Origin: Gammaproteobacteria bacterium
GTDB lineage: Bacteria; Pseudomonadota; Gammaproteobacteria; SZUA-21
Length of the DNA: 64,000 bases
Direction: 5' to 3'
Assembly (NCBI GenBank): GCA_003233345.1
Contig: QILK01000073.1
Span: 6,413-70,412 of the forward strand
Positions 11,807-25,510 of this stretch are shown here, in pieces. Under the pieces are notes generated by a model that saw nothing but the letters and a program-made list of their open reading frames with translations, was not told the DNA's origin and did no database searches. The translations under genes and the position numbers were made by a program. Every line of letters begins with the position of its first letter. The first letter of the stretch is position 1.

Positions 11807-12481
11807 TCATTCTTTTTGACTAATAAGAGTGGAAATATATGATTTTCTGTTACTCAAAAAGGTCATTAGTTCTTCGGGATAATCCTTTTTTACAGCTACC
11901 TTTACAGATTGACGAGAATTTAAAGCTTTGCGATAAGCCAGAACTCTAGGTGTCTTATCAAACACCGCAAAATCTGATATTTTTTCAAAAGTATCAAAGT
12001 ATCGAAATACTGTTGGATAAACGGAATCGACCAGATGAAATTTTGCACCGGAAAAAAAAGAACCCTCTTCAATATTACTTTCAAGTTGTTCAAATTTAGT
12101 CATTAAAAAATTACGCCGTTCTTCAAATTCAGCATAACTAGTCGCACTATAAAATTGCCCTATTACATCCAGAATTGATGAACCAAATTCAATCCAAGAA
12201 CGATGTTTGGCTCTTTGAATCGGGTCACTAGGGTGCAAACTCTCAGATGTTATTTCATTTAAAAATTCGCAAATAACAGCCGACTCGAAAATGACCTCGT
12301 TATCAACTATTAGTAGTGGAACTTTAGCAAGAGGGGACATCAATTCAAACCAGTCAGGTGTATTAGATAAATCGATGTACGTTCGTTTGTGAACAATGTT
12401 TTTTTCTTCAAGAACAATAATTGCTCGTTGTACATAAGGGCAGAGATTGTAACTCACTAATTCTAAATTATACTGAAGCAT
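11807..12481 (-). CDS. Glutathione S-transferase family protein
   Basis: 224 aa. N-terminal thioredoxin-like GST fold (SYNLCPYVQRAIIVLEEKNI...KVPLLIVDNEVIFESAVICEFL) followed by a helical C-terminal domain. Confidence 0.7.
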   Translation of the reverse strand: MLQYNLELVSYNLCPYVQRAIIVLEEKNIVHKRTYIDLSNTPDWFELMSPLAKVPLLIVDNEVIFESAVICEFLNEITSESLHPSDPIQRAKHRSWIEFGSSILDVIGQFYSATSYAEFEERRNFLMTKFEQLESNIEEGSFFSGAKFHLVDSVYPTVFRYFDTFEKISDFAVFDKTPRVLAYRKALNSRQSVKVAVKKDYPEELMTFLSNRKSYISTLISQKE

Positions 12482-12673: not shown

Positions 12674-12889
12674 TTATTTGACAAAATGGGCGGAATATCA
12701 ATACTCTTTGAAAATGTTTTGAAAGACTAGGCAGATACAAGGGAAACAAGGTTTTGGCGCTAAATCGATTCTTGGGAAATAAACAGGTTACGGTATTTTT
12801 CAGATAAATCGTGATATTCTGAGCCATATTCCATTACATTTTCATTCATTCGATCAACCCAGAATTCGCCAACAATGGCCCAATCAGCG
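12674..12889. repeat. Direct repeat, copy B
   Basis: See copy A. Copy B contains the genuine 3' end of the 208-aa gene at 12760-13386 and about 85 bp downstream of it. Confidence 0.85.
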
Positions 12890-13386
12890 ATATTCATTTC
12901 ATATTGAGCAAGAACGTGATCTTTTTCCAGTCCGCGTTCGGAGGCAATATCAATATGCTCGATTATTTTTACCCACTTTTTAAATGAAACAGGATTAATT
13001 TGATTTTTGCTATTGCTTATGGATTTTGTGGCTGCAGATTTATCTTCGCTACAAAGGACTTGATTGCTTTGATAAGTGCGGCTAGCCGCGACAAAGGCCT
13101 GACTGTAGAGCATCGCAATATCCGCAGATTGATTGCAACTCATTCTTTTTAACCATTCTGAATTAACGGCTTCCCAGGCAATATCATTGAGCCCAGACTC
13201 ATTCAGTATTAGCTCAAGCTTTTCATTATTGGCAAGACGTGCATTGATGTTCGCCCAGGTTTGCAATGAAATTCCCATATAAGATTGTATTTCGCTACAG
13301 GCTTCTTGTTTGCTTGACGCTAGCTCTGTGTGTTGGTTGATTTTGGCATCGTTAAGAAAAGCCTGAAATTTGTCCTTCATGGTCAT
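12760..13386 (-). CDS. Hypothetical protein (208 aa)
   Basis: Long ORF with no recognisable motif. Its last about 45 codons are duplicated at 11052-11186. Confidence 0.55.
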   Translation of the reverse strand: MTMKDKFQAFLNDAKINQHTELASSKQEACSEIQSYMGISLQTWANINARLANNEKLELILNESGLNDIAWEAVNSEWLKRMSCNQSADIAMLYSQAFVAASRTYQSNQVLCSEDKSAATKSISNSKNQINPVSFKKWVKIIEHIDIASERGLEKDHVLAQYEMNIADWAIVGEFWVDRMNENVMEYGSEYHDLSEKYRNLFISQESI

Positions 13387-13832
13387 GGCTGGCTCCTTGT
13401 GTGTCTAATGTCGAATCTATAGTTAGTATCGTCGGATTAAACTTATGCCACGAACAGAAATAGTGACTAATATACTGAATTTATATTTAATTTATTATTT
13501 GAAATAACCTGAATAACATAAGGTTAACGTTAACACGATTTTAGAATAATCTGCATATATTTATGGCCAAAAAGAGCTAGCTAGACCGTTAATTATGCCA
13601 ATAGTGAGCATATAACCCACTATCCCGATTTAAGATCGGTTTTAATCTCAACGGGTAGTTTGCGATACCCTTATTATAATTTTCAAGAGTGTTCTCGAAA
13701 GCCTTTTTGGATTTGGAAAATATTTCATATTATCCAATATTTTTTTCAGTTAGACTTAAGCTATAGTGAAGGGGGTAACTCGTGTTATTTATTTAGAAAA
13801 ATTTTATTAACGGAAGCATTAAATACAAAAAT

Positions 13833-15842
13833 ATGGATATTAAAAAAACAGGTTTTGTGCGTTGCGGGATTATCGGTAGCTTCTTGTTTTTAAGTTTTTC
13901 GTTAATGGCAGCAGATGCGATAAGCAACGCAAAAAAAGCCACCCGTCTTGGACAATATAAAAAAGCATTTGAAATATTCTTATCAGCAGCACAAAAAGGT
14001 AATATCCCCGCTCAGTATCATGTCGGAACATTGTATTTGAATGGCAGAGGAATTAAAAAAGATATTAATGCTGGTGTAAAATGGACTCAGCATGCTGCGA
14101 ATGATGGTTATCCGCGAGCCCAGTATTATCTGGGAACGTTATATAATAATGGTGAACATGTAAAGGTTAATGTCAAGCTAGGAAAAAAGTGGCTGGGAAA
14201 AGCCGCTAAACAAGACTATGCACCAGCGGTCGCTAAGCTTAACGAACTGGATGAAGCGCCAGTGCATGCCCATCAGAAAAAATCGCAAGTGATGCAAGGG
14301 ACTCGCGAAGATAAAATTATTGTGGCTGTTCGCAGAGATAAACTGGATACAGTCAAAATATTACTTAGTTCAGGCGTTTCGGTCGACACCGTTGATACAG
14401 CCAGTCACAAAACGTTATTAATGATTGCGGCAGAAAAAGGGCATAATGATATTGTGTCTTTCCTATTAAAAAATCGGGCCGATGCGAGCAAAAAAGATAA
14501 AACAGGCGGAACGGCGCTTAACCATTCAATACGTAATAATCATACCAAGGCTGCGTTCCTTTTAATTCAGTGGGGTATTAAAATTGATGAACCTAACATC
14601 TATGGTCAGACGCCACTGATTATATCTGTTAAAGCTAAAAAGCTTTTACTGGTCAAAGCATTGGTCGCGAAAAAGGTTAATCTTAATAGCGTCGATAAAA
14701 AGGGTAACACCGCTCTTGACTATTCTCGTATGCTCGAACGGAAACAGATAGAGAAATTTTTATTGGATCATAAGGCGATCGCAAAAAGTACCTTGTCTAT
14801 TGTTCGCACTAACAGTAGCAATATCACCCGTGTTACGCCAACTTATAAAAACTGGACTTTATTGCTGGAGGCTTCCTGGCGAGGACAGGAAGGTTTGGTT
14901 AGCAGATTGTTAAAAAAAGGTGTGAGTATTAATAGCACCGACGAAGATGGTTATTCTGCGCTTATCCGTGCATCCTGGAAAGGGCATTTGCACATCGTGG
15001 AGATTCTGGTTGATGCCGGTGCGGATATTAATTATAAGCAAAAAAGAGGGTTGACCGCACTAATGCTGGCGGCAAAGCATAATCACGTAGAGGTCGTTAA
15101 TTATCTGCTAGCGAAAAACGCCAATGTTGAGCTACGGGATAATTCGGGGTCTAATGCCGTTATTATGGCCACAAAAAATAACAGCATAGATTCACTCAAG
15201 CGTCTGATCCGTGCCAAAGCCGATTTAAACACACGCGATAAAAGTAAACTAACGGCGCTTATGTGGGCGTCACAGAATAATAGTGTCACCATCAGTAAAA
15301 TGCTTGTGCATGGTGGTGCTCGAGTGGATATGCATGATAATAAAAGACAGGTTGCCTTGTGGCACGCAGCGCTCGCTGGATCAGAAAGGGCCTTTGATTA
15401 TTTGATGACAATAAGAATTGATATCAATAGTAAAAACAACGAAGGTGATACATTGTTAATGCGAATGGCCACTTCAGGTAAAGTGAGTATTGTTCGAAAA
15501 TTAATTAGGCGTGGTGCATCAGTAAGGCTAAAAAATAATATTGGTGATACGGCGTTAATGGCTGCCAGCGGGAAAAATAGACTAAAGGTAGTGCAAATAT
15601 TATTAACAGCCAGGTCTGATGTTAACGTAAAAAATAATATTAATAATACTGCGCTGATGATCGCGTCCAAAAAAGGCCATAGTCAGATGGTCAATTTATT
15701 GTTAAAGCATAAAGCCAGGGTCAGGATTCGCAATAAAGACAAAAAAAATGCAAGGGAACTGGCTCAGCAGGGTGGATTCAAGCGTATTGCCAAAATATTA
15801 GAAAAACATGAAAGCAATGGCGGGTTATTCGGTATTTTTTAA
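13833..15842 (+). CDS. Secreted Sel1-repeat / ankyrin-repeat fusion protein
   Basis: 669 aa with a signal peptide (FLFLSFSLMAADA). About 4 Sel1 repeats (AQYHVGTLYLNGRGIKKDINAGVKW; AQYYLGTLYNNGEHV...), then at least 12 ankyrin repeats with the recurring G-TALM-A---GH---V--LL--GA-VN pattern. Confidence 0.8.
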   Translation: MDIKKTGFVRCGIIGSFLFLSFSLMAADAISNAKKATRLGQYKKAFEIFLSAAQKGNIPAQYHVGTLYLNGRGIKKDINAGVKWTQHAANDGYPRAQYYLGTLYNNGEHVKVNVKLGKKWLGKAAKQDYAPAVAKLNELDEAPVHAHQKKSQVMQGTREDKIIVAVRRDKLDTVKILLSSGVSVDTVDTASHKTLLMIAAEKGHNDIVSFLLKNRADASKKDKTGGTALNHSIRNNHTKAAFLLIQWGIKIDEPNIYGQTPLIISVKAKKLLLVKALVAKKVNLNSVDKKGNTALDYSRMLERKQIEKFLLDHKAIAKSTLSIVRTNSSNITRVTPTYKNWTLLLEASWRGQEGLVSRLLKKGVSINSTDEDGYSALIRASWKGHLHIVEILVDAGADINYKQKRGLTALMLAAKHNHVEVVNYLLAKNANVELRDNSGSNAVIMATKNNSIDSLKRLIRAKADLNTRDKSKLTALMWASQNNSVTISKMLVHGGARVDMHDNKRQVALWHAALAGSERAFDYLMTIRIDINSKNNEGDTLLMRMATSGKVSIVRKLIRRGASVRLKNNIGDTALMAASGKNRLKVVQILLTARSDVNVKNNINNTALMIASKKGHSQMVNLLLKHKARVRIRNKDKKNARELAQQGGFKRIAKILEKHESNGGLFGIF

Positions 15843-15903
15843 GTTAGATTGTTTTTTACGTGCTGCCTGTTTGCAGATTTAAACTTAATTGGAATAATTT
15901 TTA

Positions 15904-16971
15904 ATGAGTATTACCTATAACAAAAAAAAGGAAAGATTAACACCGATAGTGCGTGAGCATTCTATAGAGCAGGTTTCACAGCCTCCGCGGGTTTCAGAGG
16001 CTTCACAAGGTTTAGCCGATAAGCTTCCCGACACCGCAAGCAAGCCACCAAAGAAAACCACGCAAAAGAAAACCAAACAAAAGCAAACAAAGCAAAAGAA
16101 AAAGCGCCCCGAATCAGTCATGCTTAAGTTTTTTACACTGGCATTTACTGCGCTTGTTTTATATGTGCTCTTCGATGGCTGGGTTAACCGGGTTGATGAG
16201 CGGTTTCTTCCCAATAAAGGCAGGGGGCTTTACTACGGTATTATTGGTGCGGCCATGATGGTGTTGTTATTGTTATATCCTGTCAGAAAGCACATGAGGT
16301 TTTTTAGAAAGTGGGGGAGGGTAACCTACTGGTTTCGGGCGCATATGATGCTGGGGATTATGGCACCGGTTTTGATATTGTATCATTGTGATTTTAAGTT
16401 GGGTTCATCTTGGAATAGTTTTGTGGCTTTAATGTCGATGTTTCTTGTTGTTTGTAGCGGCATTATCGGAAGATTTATATACCGACAAGTACATAATTTA
16501 AAAAATAGTCATCACTATACTTATGACCAAATGCGCAAAGTACTGGCGACAGAGAAATCAATTTTTGATCAAAGTTTCAAGTTGTCGGACGAGGCTATTA
16601 GTTTAATCAACAACTTTGAACTTTATTTGGGTAAGAAAAAGGGGGTTTTAGCGCATCTGATCTCGTTACCCATTATACACATGAAGGCCAAGGAGTATTC
16701 TGTCCGTTTAATATCCTTGATAAGGAAGCAGGTTTATAGCTCCCCTGAGTATCGCAATTTACCTCGACGTGCAAAGAAAAATATGTTTTTGGAGTATAAG
16801 GTGCTGGTGGATCGATATTTTAAAAATATTCGACGAGCAGCAAACTATTCGATTTACGAAAAACTATTTTCTTTATGGCATGTGTTGCACTTTCCGCTAT
16901 TTATCCTCCTGATATTTAGCTCTGCGCTGCATATTATTATCGGTTTTATGTATGGCTATATTCAATTCTAA
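15904..16971 (+). CDS. Integral membrane protein with polybasic N-terminus (hypothetical; first gene of the cytochrome cluster)
   Basis: 355 aa. The N-terminal about 70 aa are soluble and lysine-rich (KPPKKTTQKKTKQKQTKQKKKRP). Four or more hydrophobic helices follow, with conserved His (RAHMMLGIMAPVLILYHCDF), then a C-terminal soluble segment and a last TM helix. Confidence 0.55.
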   Translation: MSITYNKKKERLTPIVREHSIEQVSQPPRVSEASQGLADKLPDTASKPPKKTTQKKTKQKQTKQKKKRPESVMLKFFTLAFTALVLYVLFDGWVNRVDERFLPNKGRGLYYGIIGAAMMVLLLLYPVRKHMRFFRKWGRVTYWFRAHMMLGIMAPVLILYHCDFKLGSSWNSFVALMSMFLVVCSGIIGRFIYRQVHNLKNSHHYTYDQMRKVLATEKSIFDQSFKLSDEAISLINNFELYLGKKKGVLAHLISLPIIHMKAKEYSVRLISLIRKQVYSSPEYRNLPRRAKKNMFLEYKVLVDRYFKNIRRAANYSIYEKLFSLWHVLHFPLFILLIFSSALHIIIGFMYGYIQF

Positions 16972-17050
16972 TGATCGTTGCCAAGTTATAATTAATGGAA
17001 AGTAATTAAATGACGGCTCAATTGTGGTAAGTGATATCGTTAGAGCTAAA

Positions 17051-18619
17051 ATGTCTATTTATATTAAAAAATTTTTGACGATAGTCTTAATACTGTCCTC
17101 TTTTATTTCACTCAATGCATTTGCTGACCGGGTCGAAGCGTTTGTGATGCCGGGTGAGGTGATTAAAGGGCATGCCAAGCTGGAAACCAATTGTGTCAAG
17201 TGTCACAAACGATTTGATAAGAAAGCACAAACTCGATTATGTCTGGATTGCCATGATAAAATAGACGCTGTTATGAAAAAACGTAGTGGCTTTCATGGAA
17301 AATCACCGATTGTTAGGAAGAACCTGTGTAGTGCGTGTCACACTGAGCATAAAGGCCGCGATGCTGATATCATCAAGTTGGATAAACGTAATTTTAATCA
17401 TAAATTCACCAACTTTCTACTTAAAGGCCAGCATAAGAAACTTGATTGTAACAGTTGTCACCAAGCCGGTAAGAAATATACAGAGGCAAAATCGACAGTT
17501 TGTTATGGCTGTCATAAGAAAGATGACAAACACAAATTACACCTGGGTAAAAAGTGCGAAAAGTGTCACACGGAACAAAAATGGAAAAAAACCAAGTTTG
17601 ATCATGATAAAACCAAATTTAAGCTGACCGGAAAACACAAGGAAATTGTATGTGAAAGTTGTCATGCTAACGAGCGATATAAAGGTATCCCAACGAAGTG
17701 TGCAACTTGTCATAAGATTAATGATGTTCATAAGGGTAAATTAGGCGACAAATGTGACGAGTGTCATACCACCAAAAGTTGGGGGAAAATGTCATTTGAT
17801 CATGATAACGAAACTGAATTTCCGATACGAGGAAAGCATAAACAACTGAAATGTAAGGCTTGTCATAAAAAAGACCCCAAAGACGAGGAACTTGCAAAGC
17901 AATGTTACGCCTGCCATAAAGTTGACGATAAACATAAAAGTAATTTTGGCCAGAAATGTCAAACGTGTCATAGCGAAAAGGGGTGGGATCACTCGAAGTT
18001 TGATCATGACCGGGATACTAAGTTTCGATTGAAAGAAAAGCACACCAAGGCAGATTGCACAGATTGTCATAAAAAACCTTTGTACAAAACCAAGACCAGC
18101 AGCAAATGTTATAGTTGTCATAAAATCGATGATAAACACAAAGGCAGTCAGGGTAAGAATTGCCAGAAATGTCATAACGAAAAAAATTGGAAATCAAAAA
18201 TTGCCTTTGATCATGATTTTACTAAGTTCCCGCTGGTTGGATTACATGCGCTGGTAAACTGCAAAGAATGTCATACGCAGGAAAGTTTTTCCGCTACCAA
18301 AAAAAGCTGTATCAGCTGCCATAGGAAAAAGGATGTACATAAACTAAGATTGGGGACTTTTTGTGAATTATGTCATACCCCAAATGGATGGAAAATCTGG
18401 AATTTTGATCATGACCGGCAAACTGAATATCCATTAAAAGGTAAACATAAAGGTCTTAATTGCATTAAATGTCATAAACGTCCCGTGAACAAAAAGAGTA
18501 TAAAGTTGGACGCAAACTGTTCAAATTGTCATAGTCAAGACGATCCTCATGATGGAAAGTTTGGTAGCAGTTGTGCAAGTTGCCACAAAGTGTCTTCTTT
18601 TAAGGACATAGATATTTAG
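17051..18619 (+). CDS. Multiheme c-type cytochrome: 21 CxxCH motifs in seven triheme c7-like modules, lysine-rich
   Basis: The track ORF starts at GTG 17024, but ATG 17051 gives a classical signal peptide (MSIYIKKFLTIVLILSSFISLNAFA). I hand-counted 21 CxxCH motifs. There are seven repeats of about 72 aa, each shaped like FDHD-T-F-L-GKH----C--CH ... C--CHK-DD-HKG--G--C--CH. My count gives about 98 Lys (about 18%). Confidence 0.85.
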   Translation: MSIYIKKFLTIVLILSSFISLNAFADRVEAFVMPGEVIKGHAKLETNCVKCHKRFDKKAQTRLCLDCHDKIDAVMKKRSGFHGKSPIVRKNLCSACHTEHKGRDADIIKLDKRNFNHKFTNFLLKGQHKKLDCNSCHQAGKKYTEAKSTVCYGCHKKDDKHKLHLGKKCEKCHTEQKWKKTKFDHDKTKFKLTGKHKEIVCESCHANERYKGIPTKCATCHKINDVHKGKLGDKCDECHTTKSWGKMSFDHDNETEFPIRGKHKQLKCKACHKKDPKDEELAKQCYACHKVDDKHKSNFGQKCQTCHSEKGWDHSKFDHDRDTKFRLKEKHTKADCTDCHKKPLYKTKTSSKCYSCHKIDDKHKGSQGKNCQKCHNEKNWKSKIAFDHDFTKFPLVGLHALVNCKECHTQESFSATKKSCISCHRKKDVHKLRLGTFCELCHTPNGWKIWNFDHDRQTEYPLKGKHKGLNCIKCHKRPVNKKSIKLDANCSNCHSQDDPHDGKFGSSCASCHKVSSFKDIDI

Positions 18620-18939
18620 AAAAGGAGTATGCGTGTAGAAATAGAATATATAAGTTGTGCTTGGATTAATATTACTTTATATTAGACGCGTGTGGTTTTT
18701 TCACACCTCATAAAAATTGTTAGTGGTATATGAAGGTAGATCAGATACCGCTATTAGAGAGGTAAAGCAATAATATAAAATTGAATAGTTAAATGATTTA
18801 TTTAAGACTCTATGCTAGCAACCGAAATTTAGTGTGTATTACGCTTATGGACGAAATGAAATTATCAAAAATGTAATTTCATAAATACACAAATAATTAA
18901 CTGGGATAGGATTTCCCACAAAATAAAAAGCGATATCAA

Positions 18940-20688
18940 ATGGACACTTGGGAAAGGACGCTGTGCAGATTGCATTTGAGGGGCTATCTTAAGTTCCTAG
19001 TGCTTGTCCTGCTAACCTTTACCTTTCTCGTTATCTCAAATCCAGTTTCTGCTAAAAAAGTCACTCAGAAATTTAACCACGACAAAACCGGGTATACACT
19101 TGAAGGTATACATGTCTACGCGGATTGTGAAAGCTGTCATGCGCGTGGAATTTTTAAAGGCACACCTAGAACCTGTCAAGGTTGTCATGCACAAGCCGGA
19201 CGTATTACTGCTACACGAAAACCGATAAATCATATATCGTCATCTGCCGACTGTGGCCAGTGCCATACATCAACGGCTTGGAAACCGGCGAAAATTGATC
19301 ATTCAAAAATCACGGATTCCTGTAATAGTTGTCACAACGGCACAACAGCTACGGGTAAATCAAAGAATCATATTACCACCAATGCACAGTGTAACGTTTG
19401 TCATAGTTCACGTGCCTGGGTTCCGGCAAACTTTAATCATAGTACTATCACCAGTGGTTGTATTAAATGTCACAATGGCACAACCGCGATTGGGAAGACA
19501 AAAGGCAAACATCCGCCCTCGAGTAATAGTTGTGAGAGTTGTCACACGATCAATTCGTTTAGCTTTAATCATACCAATGTAAGGGGCGATTGCTTTAGTT
19601 GTCATAATGGTACGACCAGTGGCGGCAAGAAAAGCGCACGGCACGTCGTTAGCGACAACCGTTGTGAAGTTTGCCATAAGAATAATCGTGCTTGGACATT
19701 TACTCACGGTTCAGGCATCACCGGGTGTAGCAACTGCCACTCGGGCCAGACAAAAGGAAAGCAAAAAGGTGCCAAGCATATTGTTACCGTAGCGAGTTGT
19801 GAATCTTGCCATAAAAGTACCAGTACATGGACGTTTGATCACAGTAACGTAAAATCTGGATGTACAAATTGCCACCGGGGACAAACAGCCGGTAGGCAGA
19901 TAAACCCAGCTACTCATGTAAAAGTGGCGCCAACAGTAGATTGCGCGGTTTGTCACGGCAGTAATACATCATGGACTGTCAATGTCGTGGTAAACCATGC
20001 GAGTTTTACTGGTACTTGTAGCGGATGCCACAACAAGAACGCGACGCATATGCCTACTTCCAATAGCTGTGGTGGTTGTCATAAAACAACAAAAGGTGGA
20101 TTTCTAAAAGCAAATACCAATGTCGATCATCGGCAAATTACCGTTTCATGCCAGACTTGTCATACTGGCAAATATGCCACCTCAAAGAAAAGTACAACAC
20201 ATGTTGCGACGACTAACGCCTGTGCAAATTGTCACAAGTCGACTGCCCAAGGTGGTTGGCCAACGAATATAAAGATGGATCATACGCAATTGGTCGGTGC
20301 GGGTGCCTGTGCTACCTGTCATAAGACCGGTGGTGTTGGGACACCAAAGCCGCAGGTACATATGAATACCACACTGGCATGTGATATTTGCCACGACAAG
20401 ACCACGACTTGGGCTATCAGGTCGATCACTTACACCCATCAGGCCGGATTGACTCAAGGTTGGTTTAAACATGGTTCGCTTACGTCTTGTATAGACTGTC
20501 ATGCTTCCAATGGCCTTGTGCAATGGGAAACCGGTCTCTATAAGAAGTCGTGCGCTGGTTGTCATGCCAGGCAGTACGAACCGGAAAATGACCATTTACC
20601 ACCGATTACTTCGATAGAGGCTAATAAACATTGCGGTGGTACTGTACCAGGTGGTACTGGCTGTCATGGTAGAAATCGAGGGTTTTAA
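18940..20688 (+). CDS. Multiheme c-type cytochrome: 21 CxxCH motifs, Thr/Asn/Gly-rich
   Basis: 582 aa with a hydrophobic signal-like segment (LKFLVLVLLTFTFLVISNPVSA). An in-frame TTG near 18976 with a GGA before it would give a shorter, cleaner signal peptide. I hand-counted 21 CxxCH motifs. CxxCHNGTT(A)xGK and NH/KH(x5-7)CxxCH units recur, supplying the distal His needed for bis-His haems. Confidence 0.85.
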   Translation: MDTWERTLCRLHLRGYLKFLVLVLLTFTFLVISNPVSAKKVTQKFNHDKTGYTLEGIHVYADCESCHARGIFKGTPRTCQGCHAQAGRITATRKPINHISSSADCGQCHTSTAWKPAKIDHSKITDSCNSCHNGTTATGKSKNHITTNAQCNVCHSSRAWVPANFNHSTITSGCIKCHNGTTAIGKTKGKHPPSSNSCESCHTINSFSFNHTNVRGDCFSCHNGTTSGGKKSARHVVSDNRCEVCHKNNRAWTFTHGSGITGCSNCHSGQTKGKQKGAKHIVTVASCESCHKSTSTWTFDHSNVKSGCTNCHRGQTAGRQINPATHVKVAPTVDCAVCHGSNTSWTVNVVVNHASFTGTCSGCHNKNATHMPTSNSCGGCHKTTKGGFLKANTNVDHRQITVSCQTCHTGKYATSKKSTTHVATTNACANCHKSTAQGGWPTNIKMDHTQLVGAGACATCHKTGGVGTPKPQVHMNTTLACDICHDKTTTWAIRSITYTHQAGLTQGWFKHGSLTSCIDCHASNGLVQWETGLYKKSCAGCHARQYEPENDHLPPITSIEANKHCGGTVPGGTGCHGRNRGF

Positions 20689-20759
20689 TTAGAGAACGTA
20701 TATCAATTGGATCACACGGCGGTTTAGTAACAACTAGAGACTAAATAGAGCGTATAAAC

Positions 20760-23216
20760 ATGAAATCAGTCATAAGAATAGTATTGGCTTTTAGTATAAC
20801 GGTACTGGGTATCGTTAGTGGTCAAGCGCAAACTGTTACTGAAGAGTTTAACGTTTTAAAAACGCTGGAAGCACGCATTAATATTGCTGTCTCTGAATTT
20901 ACGATACATTTTAACCTGCCCGTAAACTACTTGGGTCATTCGCCAACAAAAGAAGGCAAACACATTATTATTCGTGTTGCCCCAATCGGTCGAAACCCCC
21001 GGGATGTAACCGGATTTACTTCAAGTACCGCTTTGAATAATCCAATGAGTTTTGGTGGAAGGGAAGTTTTGTCCTGGACCGCGACCAAAGAGCTGCCTTT
21101 AACGGAAGTGGAATATGAAGGCACCAATATTGGTGGACCGATTATTGAAGTCAGTTTCACGCGTAGTGTTAAATACAAAGTTGTCCCAAGTAAGGATTTG
21201 CGTAGTCTGACTATTCTGGTCGAAAACGAGAAGCAGGCAAAAAGCACATCTAAGCATAACTACTTGCTTAACCTGTCGACTTCGGGAAAACCCTTTGATG
21301 TTACCAGTTTGGACACTGGAAAATTTCCAGAAAACTATGTTTTTTTCCCTACCCATAGTGTAGTCGACAACAAGTCCGTCAATCACCTGAAAGTGGGGTT
21401 TTTTAAAACCCCAAGGGATATTCGTGAAGCCCTTAAAAAGTTAAAACCCTATTATCCAGATGCAAAGGTAATGTTATCAACGGATGAGGATATAAAGGTT
21501 GCAAAACAATACCAGCGAGATCAGAAGCTAATCGCTAAAACAACACCACTAAAAACCCCCGCCCCCGGAAAAGAATCACCGGCGATAGCAAGTAATTCGC
21601 GCGATATTATGGAAAAGGCAAAGTTTACTTTGCTAGAGGGCAATTATGATAAAGCAATTGAGCAATATACCGTCGTGATTCAAAAAGATCCGAATGGCCA
21701 ATATGCACAGGAAGCCCAGGAATACCTGGGATTAACCCGGCAGCGTAATAATCAGGTTGCCCATGCAATTGCAGAATACAAAAAATATTTGCAAAAATAT
21801 CCGCAAGGCGAGGGCGCCACGCGTGTTAAGCAGCGTCTTAATTCCTTATTAACCGCGTCACATGATCCGCGAGGGAAATTACCGGGGACTACGACGGAAG
21901 ATAAAAAATCACCTTGGCGGCTCTATGGAAATGTTTATGGTAATATCAGGTACGATAATTCTAAAACCGTTATCAAGGCTACTAATACTAAAATCAAAAA
22001 TCAGACGACCACTTATGTTACCAGTTTAAATGCGACTGCCAGAAAAAGAACAGAAAAAAGTGAGACAAAAATACGATTCACTGGTATATATCGAGATGCG
22101 GATGATGGTACAAATCGCAATAACAGAAGTGGACGCGTTAACTATTTTTATGTAGACCATAAAGATAAAGTGCGTAATTATGGTTACCGTATTGGTCGTC
22201 AGGCAAAAAGTAGCGGTGGCGTCTTGGGCCGTTTTGATGGCATATCGGTGGATTATAAAATTAGTTCGCGTTATAAGGTTAACTTCGTTTCTGGTTACCC
22301 CGTCAATTTTACCAAATTTGGACAAATTGAAACTAACCGTTATTTTTATGGTGTTAACACTGACATTTCCACCAAGAATAAATATTTGACTTTTAATGTA
22401 TTTGCTATCAATCAGGTTATTGATGGTATTAGTGATCGGGAGTCAATCGGTGGCGAGGTTCGCTATATGAACCCGAAGCACTCATTGTTTGCATTGGTTG
22501 ATTACGACCATTCTTATCAGGAATTAAATACTGTCTTCGTTTCCAATAACTGGCGCTTTAAAAATAAGGCGGTTGTTAATGTAACTTATGATTATAGAAG
22601 AAGCCCAGTATTAACAACTAGTAATGCGTTGCAAGGGCAGACGGAAGGATCAATAAAAGAGCTTTTACGTCGACTTAGCGAGAGCCAGATCAGACAGTTA
22701 GCCCGTGATCGTACGGCGACCTACAAATCGGTATCGGTGGGAGGCACTTATCCACTTGCCCATGACTTGTATCTAAACGGAAATGTTACGGTTGCTGAGC
22801 TCGAAGGTACAGTTGCGTCGGGTAATGTTGCGGCTGTTCCTGATAGTAGTCAAGAATATTTTTATTCACTACAATTAATAAAAAACAGTTGGTTAAAGGC
22901 CGGTGATGTATCAATATTTGGTATTCAGTTTGCTGATGCAACAACTTATCAGCGGACATCCTATTCGTATGGCATCCGCTATCCTCTAACACCCAGAATC
23001 CGAATTCGTCCAAAGTTTGAATATGATGTACAGGATATAAATGACGGCACTGAAGTCACTACCTACCGCCCCTCTTTACGTGTTGATTATCGTGCGAGCA
23101 ATAGATGGCGTTGGGAACTGGAAAGCGGCTATTCATATGCTGAAATCAGGAATTCTGCCAGTGACAGCGATCAGACCGATTACTTTATCAGTATGGGCTT
23201 TATTTATGATTTCTAA
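20760..23216 (+). CDS. Outer-membrane protein: N-terminal domain, TPR-like repeats, C-terminal beta-barrel (putative porin partner of the cytochromes)
   Basis: 818 aa with a signal peptide (MKSVIRIVLAFSITVLGIVSGQA). TPR-like helical repeats lie in residues about 290-370 (YDKAIEQYTVVIQKDPNGQYAQEAQEYLGLT...AIAEYKKYLQKYPQGEGAT). The C-terminal about 440 aa show alternating hydrophobic/polar amphipathic beta-strand periodicity and end in ...GFIYDF, the aromatic C-terminal residue used as a BAM signal. Confidence 0.7.
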   Translation: MKSVIRIVLAFSITVLGIVSGQAQTVTEEFNVLKTLEARINIAVSEFTIHFNLPVNYLGHSPTKEGKHIIIRVAPIGRNPRDVTGFTSSTALNNPMSFGGREVLSWTATKELPLTEVEYEGTNIGGPIIEVSFTRSVKYKVVPSKDLRSLTILVENEKQAKSTSKHNYLLNLSTSGKPFDVTSLDTGKFPENYVFFPTHSVVDNKSVNHLKVGFFKTPRDIREALKKLKPYYPDAKVMLSTDEDIKVAKQYQRDQKLIAKTTPLKTPAPGKESPAIASNSRDIMEKAKFTLLEGNYDKAIEQYTVVIQKDPNGQYAQEAQEYLGLTRQRNNQVAHAIAEYKKYLQKYPQGEGATRVKQRLNSLLTASHDPRGKLPGTTTEDKKSPWRLYGNVYGNIRYDNSKTVIKATNTKIKNQTTTYVTSLNATARKRTEKSETKIRFTGIYRDADDGTNRNNRSGRVNYFYVDHKDKVRNYGYRIGRQAKSSGGVLGRFDGISVDYKISSRYKVNFVSGYPVNFTKFGQIETNRYFYGVNTDISTKNKYLTFNVFAINQVIDGISDRESIGGEVRYMNPKHSLFALVDYDHSYQELNTVFVSNNWRFKNKAVVNVTYDYRRSPVLTTSNALQGQTEGSIKELLRRLSESQIRQLARDRTATYKSVSVGGTYPLAHDLYLNGNVTVAELEGTVASGNVAAVPDSSQEYFYSLQLIKNSWLKAGDVSIFGIQFADATTYQRTSYSYGIRYPLTPRIRIRPKFEYDVQDINDGTEVTTYRPSLRVDYRASNRWRWELESGYSYAEIRNSASDSDQTDYFISMGFIYDF

Positions 23217-23280: not shown

Positions 23281-23658
23281 TTGGCCGCTATAGTGTTTAC
23301 TCATCAACATTGTAGTAGATTCCCCATGCGTATAAATGATCTGTGTGAAGCGATAGAAACAACCAAATGGGATATTGCACTGGAAGCATTGCTGAATGAA
23401 ACCTTCAGTAAAAATCACAGGATTGATCTGGAAATCTTAAGTCAACTGTCAAAGCAATTTTCAATTCGATTTGAAGATTTGGTGGTAACCTTGTTTGAGC
23501 TTACTTTTTGTGAGCAATGGCAATATATGGATATAAACGGAACACCGCAAATGTTAAAACATCAGGATCTGGATAAACTTTATTTAAAAAGCCGGATCTA
23601 CTTAGCCAGCGCTAGCCATCTTACCGGCTATTGGCAACCGCTAGCGGATAAACGATAA
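23281..23658 (+). CDS. Hypothetical protein (125 aa; the start may be the internal Met at about 23326)
   Basis: ORF with no recognisable motifs. Confidence 0.35.
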   Translation: MAAIVFTHQHCSRFPMRINDLCEAIETTKWDIALEALLNETFSKNHRIDLEILSQLSKQFSIRFEDLVVTLFELTFCEQWQYMDINGTPQMLKHQDLDKLYLKSRIYLASASHLTGYWQPLADKR

Positions 23659-23764
23659 TTTTTTAGGGGTTTGCTAACTTTTTTGTTACGGCTAACAAAG
23701 CTGTTATTAGCTTATATAATTAGTAATAACAGAGTTGTTTTATAGCTGAAACAGGAAGAGTAAT

Positions 23765-24271
23765 ATGAGCGAAAAATATCAGGTAGTCTTTAAAGGCGAG
23801 CTGGTTGAAGGCTGTGACCTGGAAGAGACCAAAGTAAAAGTAGCTGCTTTGTTTAAAACGTCGGTCGATGCGATCGATAAACTGTTTTCCGGCTCCCGAG
23901 TCGTTATCAAGGACGACCTGGAAAAAAGTGTTGCTGATAAATATTATGCAGCGTTGTTTAAATGCGGTGCGCAATGCGAAGTTATTAATAAGTCTGAGCC
24001 AAGCGTTACCGCTATTGAAACCGATAAAACTGACAAGAGCGTTGCTGACACTGATTCGTTAGAGAAAGACTCTGATCTACTGGCCCCGCCAGGCGTTATC
24101 ATCATCAAGGGTGAAAAAATACCAAAACCTGTTATTGATACCAGCGCATTTTCGATGGCCGATGTCGGGGAAACGATTATCGAGGCACAAAAGGTGAAAG
24201 AGCCAGAAATAAATATCGAATCGTTGGAAATGGCGGAAATTGGGGCAGATTTACTGTCGTCGAAAGAATAA
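23765..24271 (+). CDS. Hypothetical acidic protein (168 aa)
   Basis: Clean ORF, strongly acidic (D/E-rich). No motif recognised. Confidence 0.45.
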   Translation: MSEKYQVVFKGELVEGCDLEETKVKVAALFKTSVDAIDKLFSGSRVVIKDDLEKSVADKYYAALFKCGAQCEVINKSEPSVTAIETDKTDKSVADTDSLEKDSDLLAPPGVIIIKGEKIPKPVIDTSAFSMADVGETIIEAQKVKEPEINIESLEMAEIGADLLSSKE

Positions 24272-24355
24272 CTAGTCTGTAGAATCTGATTTTTTCAATT
24301 GCCGCTACACTTGAAAATCAAAGCGCGATAAAATAGGGTTTTAATCGCCTTTAAA

Positions 24356-24721
24356 GTGTTAATTTATATGTATATCAAAAAACTGGGTCTCTGGCTGAAA
24401 TTAATTCCGGGCTATCTAAATACGCTACGAAAACTACTGTTTATAAGCGCAATCGTTATTATTGTCTTTCCAGCAGATGCAAATACAGAAATCAGTGTAG
24501 AAGGCTGGGGAATGTTTTCAACGTTAATGATTCCTATTTTTGCACCCATTACTTTTTTTGTTCTATTACTGGATACGATAATGGCAAAGATTGTAATGGG
24601 TGAATACGAAGGCAAGCAACAAGACAAATATAAATCGATCGTTATTCTCGACTTGATTTTAGCGGGTGGTATTTTTGTTGCATGGTATCCCTATTTTGCA
24701 ACTATCATGAGTAGCGGTTAA
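24356..24721 (+). CDS. Hypothetical small membrane protein (121 aa, about 3 TM helices)
   Basis: Hydrophobic helical segments; no motifs. Confidence 0.4.
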   Translation: MLIYMYIKKLGLWLKLIPGYLNTLRKLLFISAIVIIVFPADANTEISVEGWGMFSTLMIPIFAPITFFVLLLDTIMAKIVMGEYEGKQQDKYKSIVILDLILAGGIFVAWYPYFATIMSSG

Positions 24722-24742: not shown

Positions 24743-25510
24743 ATGAATTCAAAACTTATTATTTTGTGGTTAAGCCTGGTTTTTTCATCGTACAGCCATT
24801 CGCAGAATTTATCTAATTCAACGGTGCCCGTTGCTGATAGGCTTCCTTCGGTGTCTGTAAATGACACGTCTAAGAGCAAACTTAATAGCGTTAAAGATAC
24901 ACTTAGCCCGGCTCAGTCTTATCTCAGTTGGAAGGCAGCAGCAGAAAAGGGTGATACTAATTCTCAATATAATCTGGGTCTTGTTTATGAGCAAGGATTG
25001 GGTACAGCCGTTGATCTGCAACAAGCAGCACGTTGGTATAAAAAGGCATCCATGCAGGGACACGCTGTTGCAGCATATAATCTAGCCACAATGGCTCACC
25101 AGGGCCACGGAATGAAGGCAGATATAAAAATGGCGAAGCATTGGTACGAATTTGCTGCCAAAAAAGGCTATTTACTTGCTCAGGCCAGTCTCGGGTTTTT
25201 GTATGCAACAGAAAACACACCTTTTACCGATGTAAAGAAAGCGGTTTACTGGTTTAACAGAGCGGCCAAGCTCGGTCATCCAGAGGCTCAGTTTAATCTT
25301 GGTATGATGTATTCTACTGGCAGAGGAATAGAACTTGATTATATCAAAGCTTATGCTTGGTTCAATGTATCAGGATTTAACCGTTACAAAAATGCGATTG
25401 AAAGTCGAAATTTTGCGGCCGCCCGGCTTACTGTAAAGCAACTTGAATCAGCCCAGGCTCTATCGAATCACTATCGCGAACTCTACTTTAAGAAGCAAAC
25501 GCCTAAATAG
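24743..25510 (+). CDS. Secreted Sel1-repeat protein
   Basis: 255 aa with a signal peptide (LIILWLSLVFSSYSHS). About 5 Sel1 repeats (SQYNLGLVYEQGLGTAVDLQQAARWYKKA; AAYNLATMAHQGHGMKADIKMAKHWYEFAAKKG; AQFNLGMMYSTGRGIELDYIKAYAWFN). Confidence 0.75.
   Translation: MNSKLIILWLSLVFSSYSHSQNLSNSTVPVADRLPSVSVNDTSKSKLNSVKDTLSPAQSYLSWKAAAEKGDTNSQYNLGLVYEQGLGTAVDLQQAARWYKKASMQGHAVAAYNLATMAHQGHGMKADIKMAKHWYEFAAKKGYLLAQASLGFLYATENTPFTDVKKAVYWFNRAAKLGHPEAQFNLGMMYSTGRGIELDYIKAYAWFNVSGFNRYKNAIESRNFAAARLTVKQLESAQALSNHYRELYFKKQTPK

Follow-up and report, generated by a model that had tools for sequence, protein, structure and literature searches.

Why should a bacterium carry the gene for a long ankyrin-repeat protein directly beside genes for giant multiheme cytochromes? 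The question is posed by a 64-kb stretch (64,000 nucleotides) of a gammaproteobacterial genome of the lineage SZUA-21 (assembly GCA_003233345.1, contig QILK01000073.1, positions 6,413 to 70,412), here called the window, in which a plus-strand gene at 13833–15842 encodes a predicted exported fusion of Sel1 and ankyrin (ANK) repeats, Sel1-ANK, and is followed by a porin-cytochrome cluster of the type known as PCC3. In host-associated bacteria, ankyrin and Sel1 repeats are overrepresented, and a sequence-only reading of the locus had offered two interpretations: either the organism is host-associated and the protein a secreted effector, or the protein has a periplasmic role together with the cytochromes. 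Of these the second stands, on the basis of bidirectional linkage to PCC3, a conserved signal peptide and co-divergence with the cluster, the physical mechanism being what we infer, and the first does not. We regard it as probable that Sel1-ANK is a Sec-exported periplasmic solenoid that serves the PCC3 conduit as a dedicated accessory, that is, as a scaffold or assembly factor.

The gene begins with ATG and encodes 669 amino acids, exactly at the coordinates originally assigned to it, and the fusion of the two repeat types is borne out by Pfam, with both families scoring far above their curated cut-offs (Ank_2, PF12796, E = 8.3e-76 and 251 bits against a gathering cut-off of 27.3; Ank, PF00023, E = 2.1e-68 and 222.8 bits against a gathering cut-off of 21.1; Sel1, PF08238, E = 3.1e-16 and 59.6 bits against 30.7). 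A structure model was computed with AlphaFold2 from a five-sequence alignment (mean pLDDT 84). The N-terminus, MDIKKTGFVRCGIIGSFLFLSFSLMAADA (amino acids 1–27, positions 13833–13913), combines a basic n-region, a hydrophobic core and an AxA-like site, as judged by the hydrophobicity heuristic that was used for signal peptides throughout, and is of low confidence in the model (pLDDT < 50); these features agree with the Sec signal peptide proposed earlier, as does the finding that 52 of 53 homologs have a hydrophobic, signal-like N-terminal segment, after which an AxA-like site is common. The Sel1 domain (amino acids 28–141, 13914–14255) consists of approximately three repeats, modelled as helix pairs, within which the Sel1 profile finds two significant stretches, the best at amino acids 94–129, and it is joined by a disordered linker (amino acids 142–155) to the ankyrin repeats. 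The latter form 15 helix pairs with a spacing of 33 residues and pLDDT values mostly above 85, as is characteristic of an ankyrin solenoid; the sequence-only reading was right about their identity, and its count of at least 12 was too low. Pfam, the AlphaFold2 model and the ortholog alignment all support two blocks, repeats 1–5 (amino acids 158–312, 14304–14768) and repeats 6–15 (amino acids 343–662, 14859–15818), which are parted by a short hinge at approximately amino acids 313–342. The second block opens with a family-specific motif, YKNWTLLLEASWRGQ, is modelled with pLDDT mostly above 90, and matches the C-terminal half of ankyrin-1's solenoid on superposition, with a TM-score of 0.69 and a root-mean-square deviation of 4.0 Å. 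A disordered tail that ends in GGLFGIF (15819–15839; pLDDT < 50 at amino acids 664–669) completes the protein. A fold search of the PDB returned only generic long ankyrin solenoids (ankyrin-1/B, DARPins), with no bacterial periplasmic analogue among them.

What, then, is the cluster that Sel1-ANK adjoins? As described by He, Barco, Emerson & Chan in 2017 (PMC5566968), PCC3 includes an inner-membrane protein of about 300 amino acids with five transmembrane helices, which carries an SGxxG motif on the fourth helix and a Wx3Hx13H motif on each of helices three and five and for which the binding of two b-hemes, in the manner of a ferric-reductase domain, has been proposed, and a periplasmic cytochrome with a median of 21 hemes. 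In the window, the gene that follows Sel1-ANK on the same strand (15904–16971) encodes an inner-membrane protein (I) of 355 amino acids, matched by no Pfam or NCBIfam family and, from its motifs and hydrophobic segments, a putative di-heme b-type carrier: W143x3H147x13H161 and S185GxxG189 are invariant in a four-sequence alignment, and a C-terminal WHVLHx13H, read directly in the sequence, constitutes the second Wx3Hx13H. Next on the plus strand come a periplasmic multiheme cytochrome (P; 17024–18619, 531 amino acids, with matches to cytochrome c7/c3 Pfam families), a second multiheme cytochrome (E, the "extracellular" one in PCC3 nomenclature; 18940–20688, 582 amino acids) and a putative outer-membrane porin (O; 20760–23216, 818 amino acids, with a signal peptide and the C-terminus IYDF), homologs of which hold the same position in other PCC3 loci. 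Both cytochromes have signal peptides and 21 CxxCH motifs each, which is the very high heme count typical of PCC3. P is 38–50% identical to its homologs in the 80 genome loci considered below, amino acids 58–251 of E resemble the DmsE/MtrA decaheme proteins at a sub-threshold score, and O contains a TPR-like segment, placed in the periplasm (a weak TPR/YfiO/YbgF match at amino acids 279–354). By the inner-membrane motifs, the heme counts and the I-P-E-O gene order, the region 15904–23216 is assigned to the PCC3-type porin-cytochrome clusters in accordance with the published definition. Betaproteobacterial loci with a 24-heme P (Thiobacillus, Burkholderiales) were also retrieved with the P of the window, which is consistent with a single family. 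The two cytochrome genes of the window are separated by 320 bp (18620–18939), compared with 52–72 bp elsewhere in the cluster.

Linkage between Sel1-ANK and PCC3 was assessed in both directions. Open reading frames (ORFs) of the retrieved loci were called by a mechanical rule that takes the longest start, and orthologs were accepted at BLAST bit scores of our own choosing; the counts take in incomplete contigs, and many of the loci are related and are, therefore, not independent evolutionary events. In the forward direction, the 21-heme P was used to retrieve 80 loci from a collection of bacterial genomes with one genome per species, and their ORFs were searched with the proteins of the window. 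A Sel1-ANK ortholog was found in 48 of these 80 PCC3 loci and in 28 of the 38 that are well covered, with at least 6 kb upstream and at least 9 kb downstream of the cytochrome. The carriers include gammaproteobacteria (Thioalkalispiraceae, Ectothiorhodospiraceae, Thiohalobacter, Methylococcaceae, Methylophagaceae, Steroidobacteraceae and genomes of the Cellvibrionaceae type), Nitrospinaceae, metagenome-assembled genomes (MAGs) labelled "Deltaproteobacteria" and one Hyphomicrobium MAG; among cultured organisms, Marinagarivorans algicola Z1 (locus L044) and Zhongshania aquatica BJYM1 (locus L073) are represented, and the sources range over groundwater, sediment, peat, sea caves, hydrothermal settings and seawater. 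In the reverse direction, an alignment of six Sel1-ANK orthologs retrieved 80 metagenome loci, 58 of which encode a Sel1+ANK relative; PCC3 genes, or the gene for the flavoprotein F that is discussed below, are neighbors in 53 of these 58 loci and in all 20 that extend at least 5 kb on both sides. The remaining 22 matches, which are ANK-only and served as a negative control, have PCC3 neighbors in two cases, both of them orthologs cut by a contig end. The linkage of Sel1-ANK to PCC3 is strong and bidirectional.

The same linkage emerges when the protein itself is used as the query. A whole-database search found no close relative of Sel1-ANK, the best matches being generic ankyrin proteins with approximately 30% identity, and the full Sel1+ANK architecture and length were present in four proteins; PCC3 genes are adjacent in three of the four contigs, and the fourth is too short for its neighborhood to be judged. 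The family is divergent in sequence and constant in architecture: 47 full-length orthologs span 623–687 amino acids at a mean identity of about 30%, and alignment columns are occupied at 98% over the Sel1 domain and at 99% over all 15 ankyrin repeats. Such constancy of length is unusual in a repeat protein and, together with the fixed number of repeats, it suggests that the solenoid has a defined geometry. By eye, about two-thirds of the 47 orthologs end in a hydrophobic tail that follows basic residues (LFGIF, LFGVF, LFDFL, LFKLFN), and the last residue is phenylalanine in 17 of the 47; this tail, which the Steroidobacteraceae-type orthologs lack, may serve as a peptide for docking or as a membrane anchor. 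Variant accessory architectures were noted in a few loci (L033:3242–7396, L036:3092–6183, L012:6124–9015, L014:4506–7325 and L041). Some of these pair shorter ANK-only genes (355–379 amino acids) with a large ORF on the other strand that matches Sel1, and others contain extended forms of 939–963 amino acids; the apparent 1215-residue form in L041 overlaps the ORF of F and is probably an artefact of ORF calling.

Sel1-ANK also diverges in step with the cluster. Pairwise divergence of the ankyrin protein is correlated with that of P, O, I and F (r = 0.93, 0.92, 0.86 and 0.85, respectively), with Mantel p ≤ 0.001 in every case and no correction for shared species phylogeny; judged at the level of sequence divergence, the correlations show co-inheritance as one module and not physical contact. 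The association extends to a particular form of the periplasmic cytochrome, since P has 21 hemes in 46 of the 50 ANK-positive loci, whereas a 24-heme P is found in seven of the ten well-covered ANK-negative loci and the Nitrospira loci combine a 27-heme P with the lack of Sel1-ANK. Across the loci, the number of hemes in P comes in steps of three (18, 21, 24, 27), and Sel1-ANK goes almost exclusively with a P of 21 hemes; it is lacking where P has 24 or 27, in Betaproteobacteria, Hyphomonas and Nitrospira (the loci compared with the ANK-positive ones were L054, L056, L058, L062, L063, L067–L070, L072, L074, L079 and L080).

In most loci, the Sel1-ANK gene is directly preceded by the gene for F, an Fe-S flavoprotein of about 435–450 amino acids (F loci are L001–L003 and L007–L083; examples are L021:7478–8797 and L007:17025–18329). 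In 45 of the 49 pairs that lie on the same strand, the stop codon of F is within 90 nt (median 25) of the codons for the hydrophobic core of the Sel1-ANK signal peptide, which makes the pair a tight bicistron; it can be divergent from I-P-E-O, collinear and upstream of it, or located downstream of the porin. F has an N-terminal transmembrane helix followed by basic residues, with no twin-arginine signal seen, and its domains are a 2x[4Fe-4S] ferredoxin and a flavoprotein resembling thioredoxin reductase, YpdA and ferredoxin-NADP reductase, with a pyridine-nucleotide module; from these features, F is probably a membrane-anchored enzyme that faces the cytoplasm, whereas Sel1-ANK would be periplasmic. 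Taken together, F and the ferric-reductase-like inner-membrane protein suggest that cytoplasmic NAD(P)H is connected to the cell exterior by a split, NOX-like route. F occurs without Sel1-ANK in Thiobacillus and other Betaproteobacteria, in Hyphomonas and in one Enterobacterales MAG. Conversely, the window and its close relatives (ClpA 86–87% identical) lack F and have the order ANK-I-P-E-O directly; in the window, including the 446-bp spacer in front of Sel1-ANK, tblastn detected no F gene or pseudogene remnant, all matches being at chance level (E > 1). The inner-membrane proteins of F-containing loci are shorter than those of this F-less clade, which have an extra cytoplasmic N-terminal extension of about 70 amino acids (amino acids 1–72 in the window, 15904–16120) with a conserved start, M..ITYNK (window, L085:16571-, L087:9721-), and, in the window, a low-complexity run rich in Lys, Gln and Thr. 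This extension may serve instead as the place where another cytoplasmic partner docks.

How might an exported solenoid serve such a cluster? The conduit would consist of the di-heme-b-like inner-membrane protein, the 21-heme periplasmic cytochrome, the second large multiheme cytochrome and the outer-membrane porin. Sel1-ANK would bind components of PCC3 in the periplasm by protein–protein contact, with the Sel1 domain and the two ankyrin grooves each binding a partner, and would thereby hold or place the very long, heme-packed cytochrome or cytochromes with respect to the inner-membrane protein and to the porin, or aid their assembly or stabilisation; the fixed length of 15 repeats suggests that the geometry of this arrangement is defined. 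Exported alpha-solenoids are known as parts of envelope-spanning machines, namely AlgK, MotX, ExoR and the TPR-porin fusions BcsC, PelB and PgaA, and the porin of the window has a TPR-like segment as well. AlgK, MotX and the TPR-porin fusions link the inner-membrane components of a trans-envelope apparatus to its outer-membrane components; none of these scaffolds is known to have ankyrin repeats or to work with cytochromes. A second supporting analogy comes from exported ankyrin proteins that aid heme enzymes (AnkB with KatB, AnkB with CatB, Cj1386 with KatA; PMC10294975), the last of which speaks for a heme-handling role as well. A long continuous solenoid comparable to that of Sel1-ANK is found in the membrane-binding domain of eukaryotic ankyrin-R/B (24 ankyrin repeats), which binds extended segments of its partners along the inner groove. 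By analogy, groove binding of extended partners by Sel1-ANK is plausible, although the similarity is at the level of the fold, with 20–25% identity, and compartment and partners differ.

Several observations weigh against assigning such a role to Sel1-ANK. While the association with PCC3 is observed, the contact is something that we infer, and export is predicted from the hydrophobicity heuristic alone. The correlations of divergence contain the shared phylogeny of the species. Conservation mapping over the 47 orthologs highlighted mostly residues of the repeat framework, and no binding site or heme-ligand site emerged from it. Comparison of net charge and isoelectric point between the ankyrin protein and the 21-heme cytochrome in 44 loci revealed no consistent complementarity, both following genome composition. 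About a quarter of the well-covered PCC3 loci, mainly those of the 24- and 27-heme subtype, have no Sel1-ANK, which is therefore not essential to every PCC3. Finally, PCC3 itself is without a demonstrated function, and in Sideroxydans ES-1 both PCC3 clusters are down-regulated on Fe(II).

A more specific version of the accessory role is that Sel1-ANK is a stoichiometric structural subunit of a trans-envelope PCC3 supercomplex, a periplasmic strut or sheath of fixed length which docks, aligns or shields the 21-heme "wire" on its way from the inner-membrane heme-b protein to the porin and which, with F, would make PCC3 a six-component NOX-like conduit. We put this forward tentatively, as a possibility to which we assign considerably less weight than to the general role of scaffold or assembly factor. 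If true, the 21-heme PCC3 subtype would carry electrons between the pool of pyridine nucleotides in the cytoplasm and the outside of the cell, and no earlier case of an ankyrin-repeat protein forming part of a bacterial electron conduit would be known within the literature searched.

Could the protein instead handle heme? An exported ankyrin protein might bind hemin, or deliver or retain heme for the cluster, which has to be supplied with at least 42 c-type hemes for each pair of P and E, and the strict linkage of Sel1-ANK to heme-rich proteins speaks for such a factor. There are precedents in exported ankyrin proteins that are partners of heme enzymes, namely AnkB of Pseudomonas aeruginosa (katB-ankB), AnkB-CatB of Xanthomonas and Cj1386-KatA of Campylobacter jejuni; AnkB is described as supporting KatB and as periplasmic, and Cj1386 as trafficking hemin to the catalase KatA (PMC10294975, citing Flint & Stintzi 2015 and Howell et al. 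2000). Like Sel1-ANK, these proteins are encoded beside a heme protein; its full activity depends on them, and they do not act as host effectors in the organisms concerned. They serve a catalase, whereas Sel1-ANK adjoins multiheme c-type cytochromes and there is no catalase gene in the window; no sequence-specific relationship to them was detected apart from the ankyrin fold. Proteins of this type are also much smaller, with few ankyrin repeats and no Sel1 domain, and Sel1-ANK, with 669 amino acids and 15 repeats in addition to Sel1, does not belong among them; the likeness would be one of functional analogy only. PCC3 clusters do seem to recruit maturation helpers: a CcmH/CycH-like TPR gene is present in several loci (L003:2946–3887, L032, L042, L044, L048–L050, L052, L053, L055, L066 and L069), usually just upstream of the inner-membrane gene and, in L066, downstream of the porin, which suggests a dedicated apocytochrome chaperone for the giant cytochromes. 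In Sel1-ANK, however, no conserved His, Tyr or Cys stands out beyond the framework positions. Because c-type heme is normally attached by the Ccm system and the PCC3 variants with 24 and 27 hemes, richer in heme, manage without Sel1-ANK, we rate a heme-handling role below that of scaffold or assembly factor and consider it unlikely.

Two further roles appear improbable, to about the same degree. As a periplasmic regulator, Sel1-ANK would bind a sensor or the conduit itself and so turn it on or off, in the way that ExoR acts on ExoS/ChvI; repeat proteins are frequently regulators, and there is a weak similarity to ExoR, MotX and AlgK at the level of the Sel1 repeats. The models for AlgK, MotX, ExoR and MerG, however, score 21–28 bits against cut-offs of 330–700, which places the protein outside these families, no gene for a sensor kinase, sigma or anti-sigma factor is conserved in the cluster, and the bicistron with the gene of a redox enzyme and the fixed set of 15 repeats better suit a structural role. 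As a cell-surface adaptor, the protein would cross the outer membrane, for instance by type II secretion, and anchor or organise the extracellular cytochrome or attach the cell to minerals or to partner cells. Docking or anchoring could then be the task of its conserved, hydrophobic C-terminal tail. Yet secretion genes are not linked to the cluster, there is no lipobox, and the divergence of the ankyrin protein follows P and O most closely; the size of E, for its part, varies greatly while that of the ankyrin protein is constant, a point that was counted in favor of the adaptor.

The notion of a host-directed effector, and thus of a host-associated or intracellular organism, is even less credible. 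The highest-ranking NCBIfam names for Sel1-ANK are indeed Ank effectors of the Legionella Dot/Icm system, and the effectors of Legionella and Coxiella (AnkY, AnkH, AnkG, AnkX) have ankyrin repeats in common with it. These models, however, score 33–138 bits against cut-offs of 450–1400 (AnkY, the best, 138 of 600; AnkH 136 of 600; AnkG 128 of 500; AnkX 110 of 1400), which reflects similarity of the repeats and excludes membership. Unlike these effectors, Sel1-ANK has an N-terminal Sec signal in place of a C-terminal signal for type IV secretion, and its gene adjoins an electron-transfer cluster in a core housekeeping region. Genes for type IV or type I secretion, which the effector interpretation had called for, are absent from the 64-kb window. 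Orthologs of the same architecture are widespread in free-living lineages of sediment, groundwater, peat, hydrothermal settings and seawater, always beside PCC3, and it was such a distribution that the sequence-only reading had named as incompatible with an effector. The least probable explanation, that Sel1-ANK is a generic periplasmic repeat protein that lies next to the cytochromes by chance, as the missing F and the AT-rich 446-bp spacer 5' of the gene might suggest, is ruled out by the linkage statistics, with bidirectional linkage in more than 100 independent loci of several phyla, and is further contradicted by the co-divergence with PCC3 components.

The surroundings of the gene show how this version of the cluster is embedded. 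The window belongs to the core part of the chromosome (hflD-mnmA-icd-clpSA-aat ... rne-rluC ... plsX-fabHDG-fabF-pabC-mltG-tmk-holB-pilZ, in addition to fad genes), with no secretion-system genes in it, and the order ANK-I-P-E-O is kept in its close relatives (L085–L087). Exact look-ups of its Sel1-ANK and ClpA sequences matched no record; the nearest ClpA proteins place the organism with uncultured Gammaproteobacteria of marine or vent type. In L085 (13434–14522) and L086 (13387–14571), Sel1-ANK directly follows aat, while in the window two minus-strand genes are inserted there, a GST-like gene (11807–12481) and a gene for a protein of 208 amino acids with a weak DUF6620 match (12760–13386). 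Despite the same synteny, the window has 42% GC compared with 56–60% in L085–L087, and their PCC3 and Sel1-ANK proteins are merely 42–58% identical to those of the window, which points to a strong compositional shift and to a cluster that evolves fast relative to the housekeeping genes. The 446-bp non-coding region in front of Sel1-ANK (13387–13832), whose AT-richness had been remarked on before, has 31% GC and is presumed to contain the promoter of the ANK-I-P-E-O string. In a promoter and terminator scan of 13300–17100, the counts, those of sigma-70-like sites included, were no higher than expected from shuffled sequence, and alignment of the spacer with those of the close relatives yielded one weak common TTGACA-like element only; the spacers of L085 and L086 have the element TTATTTGACATAA...TGGAATATCAATA in common, and its counterpart in the window, TTATTTGAAATAA, is weaker. 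Downstream of the cluster, the gene at 24743–25510 (plus strand) encodes the second exported Sel1-repeat protein that had been reported for this stretch (255 amino acids; Sel1 E = 4.6e-31 over three stretches, with a signal-like N-terminus). It has no specific ortholog in the other PCC3 loci, where its matches are to the Sel1 domain of the ankyrin protein, and its membership in the PCC3 system is uncertain. Three small ORFs on the same strand between the porin gene and this gene (23281–24721; 125, 168 and 121 amino acids, the last with three hydrophobic segments) have no counterparts in the other PCC3 loci and were left out of the system.

How do these findings relate to what has been published? 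The papers on PCC3, including a pangenome study of the Gallionellaceae, describe the same four components in the same I-P-E-O order as in the window (PMC5566968, PMC9900912), whereas in the loci analyzed here Sel1-ANK, and in most of them also F, are added, with a concentration in the 21-heme subtype. The main text of PMC5566968 is free of the words ankyrin, Sel1, TPR, FAD and 4Fe-4S, neither PCC3 nor ankyrin is mentioned in a 2026 preprint on extracellular electron transfer in peat, and a search of the open-access literature and bioRxiv returned no relevant paper that joins PCC3 or periplasmic multiheme cytochromes with ankyrin. A PCC3 with one and usually two extra conserved components, Sel1-ANK and F, is thus without description in the open literature that was searched.

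PCC3 is among the most widespread of the predicted extracellular-electron-transfer systems, and Sel1-ANK and F enlarge the parts list available to structural and genetic studies of its main, 21-heme subtype. F hints at a connection to NAD(P)H in the cytoplasm and, in consequence, at which way the electrons flow. Sel1-ANK is a candidate assembly factor, the absence of which could hinder heterologous expression of the giant cytochromes. For the repeat families at large, the protein provides a clear counter-example to the practice of concluding from ankyrin and Sel1 proteins that a bacterium is host-associated.

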